A stretch of 64,000 nucleotides of DNA from Octopus vulgaris (Eukaryota): contig OX597837.1 of NCBI GenBank assembly GCA_951406725.2, positions 2,046,001 through 2,110,000 of the forward strand. Reading direction: 5' to 3'. Positions within the stretch are counted from its first letter, which is position 1. Each line of letters begins with the position of its first letter. The notes beneath the pieces are model-generated. The model searched no databases. It was not told where the DNA came from and saw nothing but the letters and a program-made list of their open reading frames with translations. Positions 6,478 to 63,310 of this stretch are shown piece after piece. The position numbers and the translations under genes are program-made.

Positions 6478-6679
6478 TTATGTGTGTGTATGTGTGCACG
6501 CGAACATGGGCTTATTAGAATGTGTATGTATGCAAATGTTTTTGTGTGTATGTATATGTTAGTGAATACGTAAATATGTTTGAGCACCTGCGCTTACATA
6601 TTTATGTAAATGTGAGAATGTGTGCGCACGTGTGAGAGAAAATATACACTCGAATGCGTATGTGTGTGTAAATATATAT

Positions 6680-9496
6680 ATGCAATATGCAGTCATACGC
6701 ACAGATAGAAAAGGGAGGAGCCATGGTGGAGTTGCAATGTACATCCGAGATGACCTCACGCCCCAGGTCCTGCTGTCATATTCAAACTCAGTATGTGAAA
6801 CTCAAATTGTACACATAAGACAACTGAATATCGTCATATGCACTACATATCGCCCACCAGACGCCCCAAAACACTCAGGCATGTTTGAAGACTGCCTAAC
6901 AAAAATAGGAGAAGTCCTCACCAACCTTGAACAGCACAACAGTGTATTCTTCATGGGTGACTTTAACCTCCCCAATGTGGAATGGCCTGGGGGGCAGATG
7001 CTCCCAGGGATGACACACCATCAGCAGGCACAGGTGGAGTCCCTGCTCCATCTCACAAATACCTCTTTCATGGAGCAAATAGTTCTGCAACCAACAAGGG
7101 CAGATAATATACTGGATCTCTGCTTTACAAACAATATGGATATTATCCATAATGTTAATGTGATGCCGACAATGATCTCGGATCACAACATAATAGAGCT
7201 GTCTACGTATGGAACAAAAGCCCCCGCAGACACACAGCCTATACGAAGCACCCACCATCTCTCCAACTTAAACTTTCATAAAGCCAACTGGAAGTCGATT
7301 GAGAAAGAGATCCTCAAACAGGATTGGCCTGAATGTCTCTCCACACCGGACATAAACATGAAACACAAACACTTCATGTCCATAATACAAGCCATATGTG
7401 ACAAATATGTCCCAATGTGCAGGGCCAGCACACACAAGAATAAAAACAGGATCCCTAGAGAAAGGAGGATTCTTATGAGACGACGGACAAGGATTGCAAA
7501 CCGCCTGAGCAAGCACACCAAAAGTGGTGAGAAGTCTCGGCTCGAAAGAATGCTAATGGAAACTGAGAAAAGTCTACATCAGTCCCATGAAAAGGAGAGA
7601 GCAGATAAAGAAGCTTGGGTAATAGAAAATATAAAATCAAACCCTAAAGCTTTCTTTAAGTTTGCCAAAGAGACAGCCACAGTGCACCAGAGAATAGGAC
7701 CTCTCTTCCAAAAAGATGGCTCTCTCACAGGAAATCCCACGAGGATAAGTGAAATACTGAACGAACAGTTCCAAAGTGTATTCACTACACCTCTAGGACA
7801 CAGGCAAGTAAACAACCCAGAAGAATTCTTTGCCACTTTACCAGCGGCCAAAGAGACAAAAATTGAGTACATCAACATCGAAGAAGATGATATCACACTA
7901 GCCATTGATGAGATTGACACAAACTCAGCTGCTGGACCTGATGGATTCCCAGCGATCCTTCTCAAATCGTGCAAACGAGCCCTTGCAAAACCGCTACAGC
8001 TTCTTTTTCAGAGCTTTCTTGCAAGTGGTAAGCTCCCAGTCAAACTGAAAGAGGGGGTAATATGCCCTATCCATAAGGGAGGTAGCAGAGCAGATGCTAA
8101 AAATTATAGGCCTATCTCTCTGACCTCACACATCAGCAAAGTCATGGAACGAATAGTCCGTAAGAAACTAATCATGTTCCTTGAAGAAAATGACTTACTG
8201 TCTGACACCCAGCATGGATTTCGACCAGGTAGAGGCTGCCTAACACAGCTCCTGCAACACTATGACTGGGTGTTGAAACAGCTACTAAATGGCTCAAATG
8301 TGGATGTAATATATCTTGACTTTGCAAAAGCCTTTGATAAAGTCGACCATGGTATGATCTGTCACAAACTGCGTGGTCTCGGCATAGGCGGGAAACTTGG
8401 AGAGTGGCTGCACAACTTCCTAAAAGACAGAAAACAGGCAGTTGTGAGCAATGGAGCCACCTCCAGGGAAACGCAAATAACAAGCGGTGTCCCACAGGGC
8501 ACTGTCTTGGGGCCACTGATGTTCATAGTGGCCCTTTCAGACATGCCTTCAGTTGCTACGATGACCACCCTTGCTAGCTATGCAGATGACACAAAGGTCT
8601 CCCACGCAATACAGAACCCTGAAAATATTGCGCATCTGCAACATGAGCTGGACACAATATACAGGTGGGCTGAGGACAACAACATGCAGTTTAATGCAGG
8701 TAAGTTCCAGGCCCTGCGCTACTGGCACACAAAGGTAAATGACGTGAAGACTGGATACACTGGCCCAGGAAGAATTGCAATCCCTGAGTCAAAATCAGTG
8801 CGTGACCTGGGCATTGACATGAGCAATGATGCATCTTTCCAAATGCATATTGCTAATCTGGTGATAAAATGCAGACGGCTAGCTGGATGGATTCTCCGAA
8901 CTTTCAGAACAAGAGAGAAGGAGACACTGATGGTCCTATGGAAAACATTTGTCCTCAGCCGCTTGGACTACTGCTCCCAACTTTGGTCACCACACAATAT
9001 AAAACAAACAGCAGAACTCGAAGCAACTCAGAGAAGCTACACAAAGAAAATCGTCTCAATGCAAAATGTCAGCTACTGGGAAAGACTGAAGGTATTAAAC
9101 CTCTTCTCCCTGGAGCGGAGGCGGGAGAGATATGCAGTAATATACATCTGGAAAATCCTGGAGGGTCTTGTCCCAAACTTTGGCATTCAAAGTTACTCCA
9201 ACCGCAGAACGGGGCGCCGCTGCGTGGTGCCAAGGATTCCAACATCACCATCAAAATACAGGTCCAGATACTGCAACAGCTTGGGTTTCAGAGGACCACA
9301 GCTTTTCAACATCCTCCCTAAATGCCTGAGAGACTTACATGGTGTGGATGTGGGTTTCTTTAAAACTAAACTGGATCTCTTCTTGTTGGGAGTCCCAGAT
9401 GAACCTACCTCACGACAGGAGACACGGATGCGGGCAGCAGCATCGAACTCCCTTGTTGATCAAGTGCCACGTATCAGAGGTGGATTCACAAACTAG
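6680..9496 (+). CDS. LINE ORF2: apurinic-like endonuclease (N-terminally truncated) plus reverse transcriptase
   Basis: APE motifs YRPP, GDFNLP, PTRADNILDLCFTN, SDHN. RT motifs YRPISLTS, QHGFRPGR, YLDFAKAFDKVDH, GVPQGTVLGP, YADDTK. CR1-type C-terminus LDYCSQLWSP...SYWERLKVLNLFSLERRR. The first ~20 aa of the listed ORF (from 6620) come from flanking microsatellite. Confidence 0.95.
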   Translation: MQYAVIRTDRKGRSHGGVAMYIRDDLTPQVLLSYSNSVCETQIVHIRQLNIVICTTYRPPDAPKHSGMFEDCLTKIGEVLTNLEQHNSVFFMGDFNLPNVEWPGGQMLPGMTHHQQAQVESLLHLTNTSFMEQIVLQPTRADNILDLCFTNNMDIIHNVNVMPTMISDHNIIELSTYGTKAPADTQPIRSTHHLSNLNFHKANWKSIEKEILKQDWPECLSTPDINMKHKHFMSIIQAICDKYVPMCRASTHKNKNRIPRERRILMRRRTRIANRLSKHTKSGEKSRLERMLMETEKSLHQSHEKERADKEAWVIENIKSNPKAFFKFAKETATVHQRIGPLFQKDGSLTGNPTRISEILNEQFQSVFTTPLGHRQVNNPEEFFATLPAAKETKIEYINIEEDDITLAIDEIDTNSAAGPDGFPAILLKSCKRALAKPLQLLFQSFLASGKLPVKLKEGVICPIHKGGSRADAKNYRPISLTSHISKVMERIVRKKLIMFLEENDLLSDTQHGFRPGRGCLTQLLQHYDWVLKQLLNGSNVDVIYLDFAKAFDKVDHGMICHKLRGLGIGGKLGEWLHNFLKDRKQAVVSNGATSRETQITSGVPQGTVLGPLMFIVALSDMPSVATMTTLASYADDTKVSHAIQNPENIAHLQHELDTIYRWAEDNNMQFNAGKFQALRYWHTKVNDVKTGYTGPGRIAIPESKSVRDLGIDMSNDASFQMHIANLVIKCRRLAGWILRTFRTREKETLMVLWKTFVLSRLDYCSQLWSPHNIKQTAELEATQRSYTKKIVSMQNVSYWERLKVLNLFSLERRRERYAVIYIWKILEGLVPNFGIQSYSNRRTGRRCVVPRIPTSPSKYRSRYCNSLGFRGPQLFNILPKCLRDLHGVDVGFFKTKLDLFLLGVPDEPTSRQETRMRAAASNSLVDQVPRIRGGFTN

Positions 9497-39964: not shown

Positions 39965-40300
39965 ATGTGTGGTAAGAAATCTCATTTGCAGTTACATGGT
40001 TCCGAGTTCAGTCCCACTGCGTTGCACCTCGGGCAGGTGACTTCTAGTATAACCTCAGGCCGACTAAAGCATTGAGAGTGGATTTGGTAGACGGCAACTG
40101 AAATAAGCTTATTTTATATATGAGCTTGTGTCTATGTGTGCGCGTGTGTGTTTGTGTCTGATCGTCCCTCGACACAGCGTGACAGTCGGTGTTGGTGTCT
40201 TTACGTTGCCATAACAAAGCGATTCAGTAAAATAGACTGACAGAATAAGTGCCAGTCTTATCGGAGCATGATGACCGAAACAAGTAAATGATAAAAGATA
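39965..40300 (+). mobile_element. SINE family B copy (3' part deleted)
   Basis: TGTGTGGTAAGAA...GAGTTCAGTCCCACTGCG...CCTCGGGCAGGTG...GGATTTGGTAGACGG. Confidence 0.8.
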
Positions 40301-40345
40301 AAATATATGCATGATTGTGCTTGTGTGTGTGTGTGTAAAAAGTAA

Positions 40346-40793
40346 AGTCAATCGCCACATCAAAGTGGCTGTTCCATGTTACCACTAGTTTAATTCCAGG
40401 CAGATCTTCTACCAGCTGGTTATCGGTGCGGCGCTGCACCCTTTTATACAATGTATATTGCTAGCAGAGGTTGCGAACCCCTAGCATCCTCTAGCAGACA
40501 ACAGGATCACGAGACTTACAAGTTTCTAGCTGCTTGGCTCATCTTCAGTCGCGAGTAACCGGTCGTCAGAGCGATTCACAGAGTCCACTCCAGCCAGCAC
40601 CATATTGTAAACAAAGCGACCATTGGTCACTGATTCGCATCATGCAAAATAGCTAGTTGCAAAATCTCAAGAAGAGATCAGATTTGTAACTATACTAACA
40701 AGCGCAGTTAATCCACATCCAAGTGGCTGTTCCGTGTTACTATTAGTTTAACCCCAAGCAGATCTTCTGCCAGCTGGTTATGGGTGCGGCGCT
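40346..40793 (-). mobile_element. Candidate retrozyme or Penelope-like pLTR unit: ~358-nt monomer with ~88-bp terminal redundancy
   Basis: Direct repeats at 40346-40435 and 40706-40793 enclose a complete hammerhead. No ORF of note. Confidence 0.6.
40508..40553 (-). ncRNA. Complete type I hammerhead ribozyme motif (GUC site)
   Basis: CGCGA-CUGAAGA-U(G)AGC(CAAGCA)GCUA-GAAA-CUUGUAAG-UC-UCGUG. All core bases are present. Stem I is 5 bp with one G-U. Helix III is ACUU/AAGU with a 2-nt loop. Confidence 0.85.
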
Positions 40794-40804: not shown

Positions 40805-41557
40805 TCGAAAGAGATTATCTTTTCATAGACGAAGATCAGTTGCAATAGGAGGAATTGAATCTCATAAGAGTGGAAAAACAAACAACAAGAAATGGGTTGT
40901 TCTTTATAATGACACTCTTTTAAGAGCATTCAAATGCTACTGCAATGTTGAGATCGTTGCCTCAGGTAAATTATGTAGGTCATGAAGCACATTCAGAAAG
41001 GAAATGACCAAGCTGCTGGTCAAGTAAACAAAGGTAAAGAAATTAATCAATATCTAATGGATGGGTATATTGGACCATCCGATCGAGTTGCAACCATTTT
41101 AGGATTTTCAGCCCATGAAAGAGCACCTGCGATAGCGAGACTGCAAGTTCATCTTCCAGATGAACAAAGAATAAAGCTCATAAATTATGAGGCTATATAT
41201 GGCTTTCAATGAACGACATATGAGAACAACATTGACAGAACTGTTTTCACTGTGCATCAATGATGACTTTGCAAAGACATTGCTTTATGCTGAAGAACCC
41301 GTGTATTTCACTTGGAACAGTAATAAGAAAGAATGCCAAAGAAGAAAGCAAGTGAAACAAGTTGAAGTTCATTTGAATATTTTCAGAGAAGAAACACTTG
41401 GTAGTGTTTATGTTGTCACACCAGAGGCAGGAGAACTGCATTGTTTAAAAATTTTATTGCATGAAATTCGAAGTAGTATTATTTCCTTTCCCGCAGCGCA
41501 TCGACATTTCCAACTTGGAGTGGTTGTGACCCATCGGGTCACGGCCGGTACATCTAG
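40805..41557 (+). mobile_element. Internally deleted Helitron: RepHel fragment plus canonical 3' terminus
   Basis: NKWVVLYN...NVEI, KGNDQA...EINQY...HERAPAIARLQVHLP, TTLTELFSLCINDDFAKTLLYAE.PVYFTWN...LKILL. A GTGACCC-ATC-GGGTCAC hairpin (41526-41542) lies 11 nt before CTAG|T (41554-41557). Confidence 0.9.
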
Positions 41558-41619
<62 letters not shown>

Positions 41620-41920
41620 AGAGTTAAGGAATGGAATAGTTAAGGAATTCGGGCTACATATGTTTCATTGTGAGCGGAACTTCGGAAGTGGTAAATATTC
41701 AGGTTCATCGTCAGACCAATGTTTGATTCTTCTGATCGATTCTTCCATGTGTTAACAAGTATCTCCTTGCGTCAGTGCAAACTTTCATTCAACCTACATA
41801 CCCTTGGCCTGACGAGCAGCCTGCAGTATACACCTCGCTTGGATATTTACCACTTCCGAAGTTCCTCTCGCTAAGGAACATATGTAACTCGGATCTTATC
41901 TACTCCATTCCTTAAATTTT
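41620..41920. repeat. Diverged inverted repeat with hammerhead-like motifs carrying an expanded domain II
   Basis: Minus 41652-41717: GGU-CUGACGA-[41 nt]-GAAA-CAUAUG-UA-GCC. Plus 41806-41890: GGC-CUGACGA-[~59 nt]-GGAA-CAUAUG-UA. Abuts (TA)n. Confidence 0.6.
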
Positions 41921-43095
41921 GTATTCTTATTCGCGTACCTGCCAACCATGGTCGTCTACCGTGAAATAGAAAAATAACTTTTTTCCAGTTTATCTTTCTT
42001 CGATACGAACAAATCTACAACCTTCCATCTCAGTAAACCACAATTGTCCCTGAAAGTTGTTTTTTATATTTACTACGGATCGGTTGACGCTAACTTTCTT
42101 CCTACACTTCGATCCTTGGATCTTAAATATATACACACACATATATATGTATATGTGTGTGTGTGTGTGTGTATATACGACGGGCTTCTTTCAGTTTTCA
42201 TCTACCAAATCCACTCACAATGGTTAGGTCGACCCGAGGCTATAATAGAAGAAACTTCGCCAAGGTGTCATGCAGTGGGACTGAACCCGGAACCATGTGG
42301 CTGGGAAGAAAGCTTCTTACCATACAGCCACGTTATCACCTATATGGTGAATGTGTTTGCAAATATGTGGGGGGGGGGGGTGTAATTAAACCATAAAACT
42401 ATAAATACAGGATTTTTCAGAAATAAAAGTTATTCCTATTTTGCTGCTTCTTCTGCAGCTGGTGTCACTGTTTTTTGTCTTTAAGCTGCACAGTTGCCAC
42501 CGCTTCAGTTGTTGTTCGTGTTCTTGTTGTTTGTTTTATTGCTGTTATTATTTTTATTGTTGTTACTGTTGCTGACTAAATTCAATACGTAAAGTATCCA
42601 TAAGTTCTTAGTTGGAGATTGTCTCCTTCTTTATGGGAAAATAAGCAAGAGAATAAAACCAGGAAGGCATGTAAAACAGACGTTTCTCCAAGATGAGATT
42701 TTAATGTCGCAACGGCCAGTAATATATTCAAAATTTCAGGAACATAAAAACGAAATAAAGAAAACACAAATGTTTTAAAAAATTTAAGAGAAGGAAAAAA
42801 ATCGGAGAAAATATATATTTTTTATTTTAAATAAAATGGTATTGTGTTCAATTGTTTCAGTTTGAGGAAAAAAATTATTCATTTATTGACAAGATGTTCT
42901 ATGGAGCGTACCACGTGATTGATCAATAGGCGCCATGATGTCCAAGCTAGACTAAAGGACGCAAGTGGATGTATGTATATGTATATAAATATGTATATAT
43001 ATATATGTATCTACGTATGTATATATATATATGTATCTATGTATATAAATAGATGTATATATATATATTTGTATCAATATATATATATATAAATA

Positions 43096-61696: not shown

Positions 61697-63065
61697 CATT
61701 CAGTAGTTTTATTTTTTATAGCGTGTTTTCACTTCACTACCGAGCGCAGCTCTGTGTGCCTTGGGTATGTGCTGTGATTTGTTGTGATGCTCTGATGGTT
61801 ATTGTATGGAAAGTGTTCTGCGTAGGATGTGTGCAGTGCCTAGTAGTGCAATTTTCTGTATGTTATATGTGTTTGTAAGTCCTGGTGTTTTTGTTATGTA
61901 TTTGTCTGAATATTTTTTTATCATGCCTAATGCACCTACTATGATAGGAATTGTTTCTGTTTTTAGATTCCACATTCTGGTTACCTCCATTTCCAGGTCT
62001 TTGTATTTTGAAAGTTTCTCCATTTCTTTTAGAGACACGTTGTCATCTGCCGGTATTGATACATCAATTAGAAAGCATTTTTTTCTTCATGATCTCTGAC
62101 AACTATATCTTGTCTGTTGGCCTTAATTTCTCTATCTGTGTGTATCGGCATATCCCAAAGTATGATTGCTTTTTCGTTTTCTGTGACCTTTTCTGGTTTG
62201 TGTCTATACCATCTTTTTTCTGTTGTTATTCCATAATGTTGGCATAGCTTCCAGTGTATGTAGGTTCCAACTCTGTCATGTCTGTGAATATATTCCTTCT
62301 TAGCCAGAGATAATATGATTTATTGTTTCTTGTCCATCACATATTCTGCAGTTACTTGTTATATTTCTTTTCATAACATGTTTTTGGTAATTTCTGGTGG
62401 GGAGGCTTTGGTCTTGTGCTGCAATTAAAAATCCCTCTGTTTCTGCTTTGAGTCCTGAGCTTCTCAACCATTGCTGGGATTTTTCTTTGTCTATTTCTTT
62501 TGCATTTAGTTTAGTCCAGTATTTGCCGTGGAGGAGTTTTTCTTGCCATCGTTTTATCATGGTTCTTTGCTGTTCTAGTTTTAGTTTGGATTTCATTTGT
62601 TTTATAGCTTTTGTTGTTTCTTTCTTCTTCTTCTTCTTCTTCTTCTTCTTCTTCTTCTTCTTCTTCTTCTTCTTCTTCTTCTTCTTCTTCTTCTTCTTCT
62701 TCTTCTTCTCTTCTTCTTCTTCTTCTTCTTCTTCTTCTTTATATTTGTTAGGTGGTATGATTTCTTGTTTGTATTTGTCAGCTTCCTTAAATACTGAGAA
62801 CAGTTTTTTGTTTTGCTCGTGTTTTGCCGCTATTTGTATCAGTTTTCCTTCCTTCTGAAGTAGATATTTTTGCAGTCCTATGGTGGTTATTTTATAGTAG
62901 TTTTCCAGCTGTATAAAGCCTCTACCACCTTCTATACGTTGTATATATAGTCTTTCTATGTCAGATTTTGGGTGATGCATCATAGACTCTGTCATTATTT
63001 TTCTTGTTTTGCTGTCTATTTTCGTCAGTTCATTTAGTGTCCAGTTAAGGATATTGTAGCTGTAA
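61697..63065 (-). pseudogene. R4/Dong-type RLE retrotransposon, 5'-truncated
   Basis: HHPKSDIERLYI.R.EGGRG, ETEGFLIAAQDQSLPTRNY, CRICDGQETINHIISG, KEMEKLSKYKDL...IPIIVGALG...IQKIALLGTAHILRRTL. (TAA)n at both ends on the element strand. Confidence 0.9.
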
Positions 63066-63069
63066 TTTA

Positions 63070-63120
<51 letters not shown>

Positions 63121-63310
63121 CATTATTAACATTATTACCACGTTGTTATTACCACGTTGTTACCACGCTGGATGAAATGCTTAGCGGTATTTCGCCCGTC
63201 GCTACGTTCTGAGTTCAAATTCCGCTTAGGACGACTACCTTTCATTCTTTCTGGGTCCCTCCTCCACAATTTCAGGCCTTATGCCTATAGTAGAAATTAT
63301 TAATATTTGT

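Follow-up and report, generated by a model that had tools for sequence, protein, structure and literature searches.

The window, by which we mean the whole stretch of 64,000 nt of Octopus vulgaris DNA that was analysed, carries on its minus strand a copy of a 362-nt hammerhead element that runs from monomer position 79 (counted from the cleavage site) through position 362 to position 178 (Table 1). Its terminal direct repeat is 81 nt long without gaps (89% identity, spacing 358) and reaches ~100 nt once a 2-nt indel is allowed, so that the copy amounts to 1.27 monomers and ends at 40336. The preliminary description had given direct repeats of ~88 bp at a spacing of ~358 nt, ~1.25 monomers and a left edge at 40346; the repeat and its spacing stand, while repeat length, monomer count and edge had to be corrected. 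The (CA)n tract that abuts the 3′ end is the likely integration target, and the 5′ junction carries part of hammerhead stem II with GAAA in inverted orientation, which, from its match to the consensus, is a small 5′ inversion. Target-site duplications were not visible around the copy, the longest word common to both flanks being 5 nt, and no fragment of an open reading frame of a Penelope-like element (PLE) was found in the 64-kb window. The neighbouring coding relic lies outside the element and, from a motif in its translation, is what we take to be, probably, a Helitron Rep/helicase. Its nearest Pfam-bearing clusters contain Helitron_like_N at 0.85–0.86, which is a lead only, and a Pfam search with a 76-aa flank peptide gave no match. 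In contigs of other runs, the relic goes on beyond 40810 into a different sequence.

Table 1. Features of the hammerhead element copy and its immediate surroundings (positions within the window)
Feature	Position	Strand	Remark
(CA)n microsatellite abutting the 3′ end	40322..40335	(−)	
Copy of the 362-nt hammerhead element	40336..40793	(−)	1.27 monomers, 89% identity to subfamily A consensus
Downstream copy of terminal redundancy	40336..40435	(−)	terminates at site 1 of the preferred 3′ ends (position ~174–178)
TATA-like word	40440..40447	(−)	fairly conserved
Long rod extending stem I	40453..40605	(−)	consensus positions 269–323 pair with 3–60; weakened in window copy
Type I hammerhead	40507..40554	(−)	stem I, core, stem II, GAAA, helix III, C17
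Hammerhead stem I	40554–40549 with 40512–40507	(−)	6 bp
Hammerhead core CUGAAGA	40548–40542	(−)	then extra U
Hammerhead stem II	40540–40527	(−)	closing pair broken in window copy
Hammerhead GAAA	40526–40523	(−)	
Hammerhead helix III	40523–40514	(−)	
Hammerhead UC	40514–40513	(−)	C17 at 40513; predicted cut 40513/40512
Homologue of LINE insertion site (monomer position 298/299)	40570..40577 (~40575)	(−)	empty in window copy
Second preferred 3′ end of the family (site 2, position ~232)	40642..40648	(−)	read through in window copy
Upstream copy of terminal redundancy (positions 79–178)	40696..40793	(−)	
17-nt inverted segment at the 5′ junction, from hammerhead stem II with GAAA	40794..40810	(+)	16/17 match to consensus positions 335–351
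Broken coding relic, flank outside the element	40811..41209 (relic to 41500)	(+)	Helitron-like

The hammerhead core (CUGANGA, GAAA and UH, surrounded by three helices of which helix I is open) is intact in the window copy. Every core base previously reported for the minus strand was found again and the cleavage position predicted at that time agrees with the annotated core, whereas stem I, given earlier as 5 bp, has 6 bp. Judged from its sequence, the ribozyme of this copy is nonetheless damaged: position C11.1 is occupied by A as compared to C in 78 of 105 family segments, the G10.1–C11.1 pair that the family majority keeps is lost, and helix III is private. The quasi-palindromic helix III with a 2-nt loop that had been pointed out before is indeed present, but it occurs only once in the whole genome, and the commonest form in the family has 4 bp and a 3-nt loop (36/105 segments). 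The idea that helix III with its 2-nt loop works in dimers only was rejected, as it rests on private mutations of the window copy, which holds a single hammerhead. A covariance search against Rfam, which had been proposed as a check, returned HH9 at 40490–40568 with 24 bits (E 0.012), i.e., below the gathering score of 52.

Other signals noted on the same strand were assessed across the family. The TATA-like word held up as the most frequent form at its site (39/132 segments), and any promoter function is putative. ATTAAA (~40389–40394) is not a family feature and was rejected as a poly(A) signal, since this site reads GTTAAA in 129 and ATTAAA in only 9 of 175 segments. Likewise, the supposed second box CUGACGA (40562–40568) does not appear among the six commonest words at its site (90 segments); it belongs to the extension of stem I and was discarded as a second catalytic box. 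The hairpin seen at 40459–40497 gives way, in the consensus fold, to a different pairing, in which this region forms one arm of a long rod.

A genome search with the window element returned 1094 candidates, 40 of which were scored, and an alignment of 30 copies yielded a closed 362-nt monomer with a GC content of 0.47 and no stop-free sense frame longer than 58 codons. As had been predicted, the element belongs to a multi-copy family that is dispersed genome-wide and not to a single-copy sequence. Dividing exact-motif counts by match rates (101/(11 of 73) = ~670; 79/(9 of 92) = ~810) suggests ~700–800 copies of subfamily A as a lower bound, and roughly 700–1,000 copies make up the dispersed family. 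The set on which the following counts are based comprises 149 loci, sampled from perhaps a thousand or more, after removal of 7 duplicates from 130 loci and then of 4 from the 30 in the set for subfamily B. Copies have a mean identity of 88% to the consensus, and strictly intact hammerheads are present in only 3 of 67 hammerhead-spanning segments. Subfamily A therefore looks old and inactive and, as far as these sequences tell, extinct. More than one monomer is present in 52 of the 149 loci, 68 loci run unbroken across positions 225–330, where an open reading frame would have to lie, and the longest copies reach 1.8–1.9 units. Two hammerheads occur in only two to three loci (L003, L004, L024), all of which carry damaged motifs. 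A pattern for two consecutive hammerheads had 0 matches in the genome (match rate of the single-motif pattern 21/74), head-to-tail pairs were absent among the 100 of 101 exact matches listed, and neither the pattern search nor the exact-match positions revealed long tandem arrays.

Subfamily B is 87% identical to subfamily A and retains all core bases, the period and both 3′ end sites. With respect to the pairs predicted in A, the 39 differences between the two fall into 14 unpaired, 9 pair-keeping, 8 compensatory and 8 pair-breaking ones, with the compensatory group representing three pairs fixed on both sides and two more in part. More distant subfamilies keep the core and differ in the sequences of stem I and the palindromic helix III. 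Assembled contigs of eight runs (seven presumed to be RNA) likewise contain parts of the family, scattered and in some cases running into flanks; such contigs are uninformative on level, strand and circles.

The family-level data indicate that the hammerhead is genuine, in the sense that its core is kept and its stems covary across five or more divergent subfamilies. In copies that had not been selected on the hammerhead, variation concentrates at N7, loop II and the internal loop of stem I, and core bases outside CpG vary at or below approximately the background rate. Among 57 copies, we counted 20 doubly changed cells in the hammerhead as compared to 11.7 ± 2.9 after shuffling (2/500) and 51 in the rod as compared to 33.5 (1/500), although relatedness can inflate both counts. 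No core base differs between subfamilies A and B, and three doubly changed pairs still pair where ~0.4–0.7 would be expected (P 0.01–0.03); the A-U pair that closes stem I in A is G-C in B. Folded as a circle, consensus A has a minimum free energy (MFE) of −150.7 kcal/mol as compared to −99.2 ± 5.2 kcal/mol for shuffled sequences (z −9.9), and consensus B folds at −137.0 (z −6.7), while the window copy attains a z of only −1.6. The active hammerhead fold lies 3.3–6.1 kcal/mol above the local MFE, and the core is mispaired in the predicted rod folds. RNAalifold returned no consensus structure for the 57 decayed copies, and paired sites in the copies vary no less than unpaired ones (0.111 versus 0.100, not significant), which is expected for copies that decay after insertion. 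The family was not among the 6 matches of a genome search with RF00163, in which 73 of ~263,000 candidates were scored. Other hammerhead families of the genome exceed the RF00163 cut-off (L169; L170, L171 and L174; L172 and L173), and those of the L170 group have a long stem II insert and inverted structures.

The way in which copies begin and end proved informative. Sixty-eight loci were selected through a motif that lies outside the hammerhead; 57 of their 3′ ends fall at two sites that are ~58 nt apart (23 at site 1 and 34 at site 2, with 11 elsewhere), 5′ ends are scattered, and the median copy length is 170 nt. A microsatellite is located within 30 nt of the 3′ end in 42 of the 68 copies and an inverted segment adjoins 23 of them; when both ends of an inversion lie in the two sites, these are different sites in 11 of 13 cases. 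A hairpin is predicted at site 1, which ends at its U-rich loop, and site 2 resembles site 1 in sequence. PLEs are described as forming partial tandems and inverted, 5′-truncated copies with a tail of 30–40 bp (Craig et al. 2021, PMC8557442), and for Poseidon of Anolis the account is that AT-rich DNA is cut and that the tail lies between two internal start sites of reverse transcription (Frangieh et al. 2024, PMC11167929). Two alternative 3′ ends delimiting a tail, 5′ truncation, 5′ inversion and microsatellite neighbours are all present in the octopus family, and this anatomy makes it likely that the element was mobilised by the enzymes of a Penelope-type retrotransposon. The cut site does not accumulate 5′ ends: among 21 copies, 6 stop no more than 12 nt from it, with ~4 expected from the background rate, and 15 pass, so the templates were either uncut or re-ligated.

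The window element is thus quite probably a decayed copy of a non-autonomous 362-nt hammerhead element that was mobilised by PLE enzymes. An integrated hammerhead retrozyme moved by Penelope-like enzymes is also what the preliminary description had proposed, and at the level of the family this proposal gains support from the closed unit without an open reading frame, the covariation of the hammerhead, the self-pairing and the insertion anatomy. As part of the same reading, we lean slightly towards a model in which the monomer RNA is ligated into a circle. Head-to-tail transcripts would be cut by the hammerhead, and the rod would keep the two ends of the monomer side by side so that they can be ligated; otherwise, uncut multimers would serve as the template. 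An AT-rich microsatellite would be nicked by a PLE enzyme, which would initiate reverse transcription within the RNA, at the site 174 or 232 nt past the cut site, and continue through the cut site without stopping for up to 1.9 units. Use of the other start site on the opposite strand would give rise to tail-to-tail inversions.

It is possible, if somewhat doubtful, that we are instead dealing with a non-autonomous mini-PLE that is copied only from uncut linear transcripts. The hammerhead would then be a legacy of a pLTR, cutting seldom or only with the help of protein, no circle would form, and copies longer than one unit would arise via multimers or template jumps. The Poseidon hammerhead of Anolis is described as behaving in this manner: it depends on protein, the substrate is mainly unprocessed RNA, and cleavage is dispensable in vitro (PMC11167929). 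The architecture of the octopus ribozyme points both ways: it shares with the min-HHRs of PLEs an additional base between A9 and G10.1 as well as a palindromic helix III (PMC4209133), whereas its stems I and II, with 6 and 4 bp, are of canonical size, unlike those of min-HHRs. The passage of copies through the cut site fits uncut RNA equally well, and the lack of long arrays also agrees with a linear template, yet copies attain nearly two units while sources that long are rare. A strongly self-paired rod that joins the two cut ends and shows compensatory changes, as reported for retrozyme circles (PMC7229834), likewise argues against exclusive copying of linear RNA.

When the hammerhead element is placed next to described systems, it resembles metazoan non-LTR retrozymes (Cervera and de la Pena 2020, PMC7229834), with which it shares monomer size, a type I hammerhead, the lack of coding capacity, a GC content below 50%, self-pairing, head-to-tail junctions and the presence of PLEs in the genome. 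Retrozymes are non-coding units of ~150–450 nt with GC < 50%, a range that includes the octopus unit; they are expressed as monomer RNA in linear and circular form, and their target-site duplications, where present, exceed 4 bp. For comparison with the 362 nt found here, and monomers of 350–390 nt in mussel and 330/350 nt in axolotl are on record (PMC7229834). In contrast to the retrozymes described there, the octopus copies are almost all dispersed, 5′-truncated and shorter than two units, and the searches yielded no long arrays. Their ends and inversions are of the PLE type, subfamily A looks extinct, and, in a class that is defined by circular RNA, the element is known here from DNA. The dependence of retrozymes on PLEs has likewise been proposed by Li, Clavereau and Pollet (2026, bioRxiv 10.64898/2026.07.22.740005), whose evidence, as outlined in that preprint, consists of co-occurrence and pLTR homology, mostly in vertebrates, and whose sample as stated there includes no mollusc class. 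The case for the octopus element is built on insertion anatomy, and a pLTR homologous to it did not come to light; two consecutive complete hammerheads, by which that preprint recognises 'active' elements, were not seen either. The similarity to PLEs, as described for Poseidon of Anolis (PMC11167929) and for PLEs in general (PMC8557442), extends to a tail that results from two neighbouring internal start sites, both located downstream of the hammerhead, to AT-rich or microsatellite targets, to partial tandems and to 5′ inversions. Differences from the PLEs described are the absence of an open reading frame, a tail of ~58 nt instead of 30–40, and start sites that are U-rich hairpins instead of an AC-rich stem-loop. 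The two-site tail together with the inversions offers direct genomic evidence for PLE mobilisation, where the earlier work, by its own outline, relies on co-occurrence and pLTR homology, and the copy ends name two candidate RNA sites at which PLE reverse transcription may start.

Two element loci share an insert at monomer position 298/299 that is the 3′ end of a LINE. The inserting LINE encodes an APE endonuclease (PF03372) and a reverse transcriptase (PF00078), joined by zf-RVT (PF13966) in relatives, and the ORF1 relic of the LINE at locus L286 contains a CCHC knuckle. On the basis of domain order and motifs, we take it to be of the L1/Tx1 type. At L286, an apparently long LINE copy (~5.4 kb) sits between two element pieces. 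We compiled 59 unique LINE 3′ ends (6 duplicates were dropped from 65, and loci without a recognisable 3′ end were left out), bearing in mind that, according to a control, ~5 of 77 LINE-end pattern matches may be due to chance. The element superfamily houses 21 of the 59 ends overall and 12 of 30 when only chromosome-ordered ones are considered. Fifteen of the 21 are in the element family itself, mostly in the more distant subfamily C, and four and two, respectively, are in two distant relatives that share its downstream motif. Of the other ends, 29 of the 59 lie in unique targets and 5 in another repeat, so the LINE is not exclusive to the element superfamily. The five insertions in the other repeat (L236, L241, L244, L265, L296) are all at the same point, and L260/L271 form a further pair of insertions of the same LINE.

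The insertion site is located ~27 nt upstream of the hammerhead core and the LINE has the same orientation as the hammerhead, as in loci between L226 and L298 (e.g., L232, L233, L269, L274, L286). With a strict descriptor, a hammerhead core was detected 26–29 nt downstream of the LINE end in 12 of the 59 cases as compared to 0 of 1106 control windows. At L237, the LINE end is followed by a hammerhead-like motif outside the superfamily cluster, with a 19-bp duplication. Target-site duplications, mostly of 14–24 bp, accompany 9 of the 21 insertions in the superfamily and were undetected or out of range in the rest; the LINE pieces measure 360–1138 nt, and element sequence continues upstream of them. 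Different 5′ truncations, each with its own duplication, imply independent insertions into element copies that already existed. We conclude that an L1/Tx1-type LINE uses a fixed site near the hammerhead as a preferred target; here, we observe the position and infer the mechanism of specificity.

It appears unlikely that this association is merely a by-product, be it because the endonuclease likes a short motif that happens to be present in the element, or because composites of LINE and element were amplified from few events. Half of the LINE sample was collected with an element-borne LINE copy as the seed, nearly half of the targets are unique, and all 59 share a loose TAYYTY start, as would be expected in such a case. 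This loose motif scales to ~2e7 genomic sites against perhaps a few thousand element copies, and still the superfamily accounts for 12 of the 30 chromosome-ordered ends. The motif alone therefore fails to explain the enrichment. A longer recognition sequence could contribute; an 8-mer of the LINE site scales to only ~1e5 genomic sites (extrapolated from counts of 2 and 4). The constant distance of 26–29 nt to the core, although the target sequence differs between subfamilies, and the independence of the insertions both speak for preferred use of the site by the LINE.

Target-specific LINEs of the Tx1 clade are exemplified by Tx1L of Xenopus. The octopus LINE resembles them in its APE-type endonuclease and reverse transcriptase, the long target-site duplications and the fixed position in a multicopy repeat. 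It differs in that its target is a hammerhead retrozyme superfamily, entered on the same strand just upstream of the ribozyme, whereas the targets compiled for the clade are rRNA, tRNA and spliced-leader genes, transposons and microsatellites (PMC4640811). Our literature search on Tx1 elements in connection with hammerheads or octopus found no description of such targeting. If a LINE does land repeatedly beside the ribozyme of a different selfish RNA, site-specific retrotransposons would gain a new class of target, and one element using the ribozyme of another would become a testable case. Tentatively, and by analogy to R2, which is cut out of rRNA transcripts, a three-tier system might be envisaged: PLE enzymes would propagate the circular hammerhead retrozymes of a whole superfamily, and a LINE of the Tx1 type would have specialised on a site ~64 nt upstream of the cut site, with the host ribozyme forming the ends of the LINE RNA. 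Subfamilies A and B, which differ at the LINE target word and carry a LINE end in only 2 of their 149 loci, could then represent escape variants.

An autonomous partner was sought by flank comparison and tblastn with Neptune-type protein queries. None of the 149 loci has the element at the end of a PLE open reading frame, so that it is to be regarded as a non-autonomous element, i.e., a retrozyme, and not as an ordinary pLTR; constant attachment of the copies to such a frame had been named beforehand as the finding that would speak for a pLTR. Conversely, no element unit occupies the pLTR position in 30 GIY-YIG loci (taken from 148 matches) or in 19 further Neptune-like loci. The GIY-YIG loci mostly represent one young Neptune-like family, which was discarded as the partner since its 3′ end is unrelated to the element unit. 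This family (L091–L094, L037, L042) comprises many near-identical frames of 781 codons and, by eye, its 3′ region displays a hammerhead-like motif with a U3-A8 core variant and CCAAT-rich tandem repeats. In L097 (L165:2254-4100), the 3′ side of the element is fused directly to a 5′-truncated Neptune-like frame. The 19 other loci of that Neptune-like family share no sequence with the element, which leaves L097 as a single chimera, possibly created by template switching, or a nested insertion. The masked upstream flanks of 35 copies truncated at positions 233–300 have only a SINE-like repeat and the LINE in common (one pair each), and sharing of flanks among element loci turned out to be due to duplicate loci, abundant SINE-like repeats or the LINE in one comparison and mostly to the element's own inverted segments in another, and was dismissed as a trace of a partner. 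A Poseidon-type reading frame starting from the ATG in stem II was rejected as well.

That the copies are mere debris of ordinary pLTRs, i.e., the 5′-truncated ends of a Penelope/Poseidon element that is autonomous but has its ORF-bearing copies outside the sample, is very improbable: the PLE insertion anatomy, the shortness of most copies, an ATG at the start of stem II as described for Poseidon elements (PMC11167929) and the use of Neptune-type rather than Poseidon-clade queries would suit this explanation, but that ATG meets a stop after 7–8 codons, 68 loci close on themselves across the region in question, the 35 truncated copies lack a common upstream flank beyond the two pairs mentioned, and no PLE frame ends into the element on the same strand.

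The octopus element is thus probably of a known kind, a non-LTR retrozyme, in a new lineage, with a LINE as a parasite-on-parasite twist. A literature search for retrozymes or hammerheads of octopus and other cephalopods retrieved no description, though supplements, Repbase and Dfam may list some, and the main text of a 2026 octopus repeat annotation mentions no ribozyme, hammerhead or retrozyme. As retrozymes are already known, a further family is modest news; the value lies in the PLE end signature and the LINE targeting.

Several other repeats are present in the window. An uninterrupted frame of 970 codons with endonuclease and reverse transcriptase domains (LINE ORF2) occupies positions 6584–9496 on the plus strand, and a C-terminal fragment similar to reverse transcriptases, interrupted by a simple repeat, lies at 62300–63145 on the minus strand and presumably resembles LINEs of the R4/Dong type. 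An abundant SINE-like repeat forms an inverted pair at 39966–40120 and 42172–42326, and a 55-nt inverted repeat is found at 41647–41701 and 41840–41894, with 138 nt between its arms.
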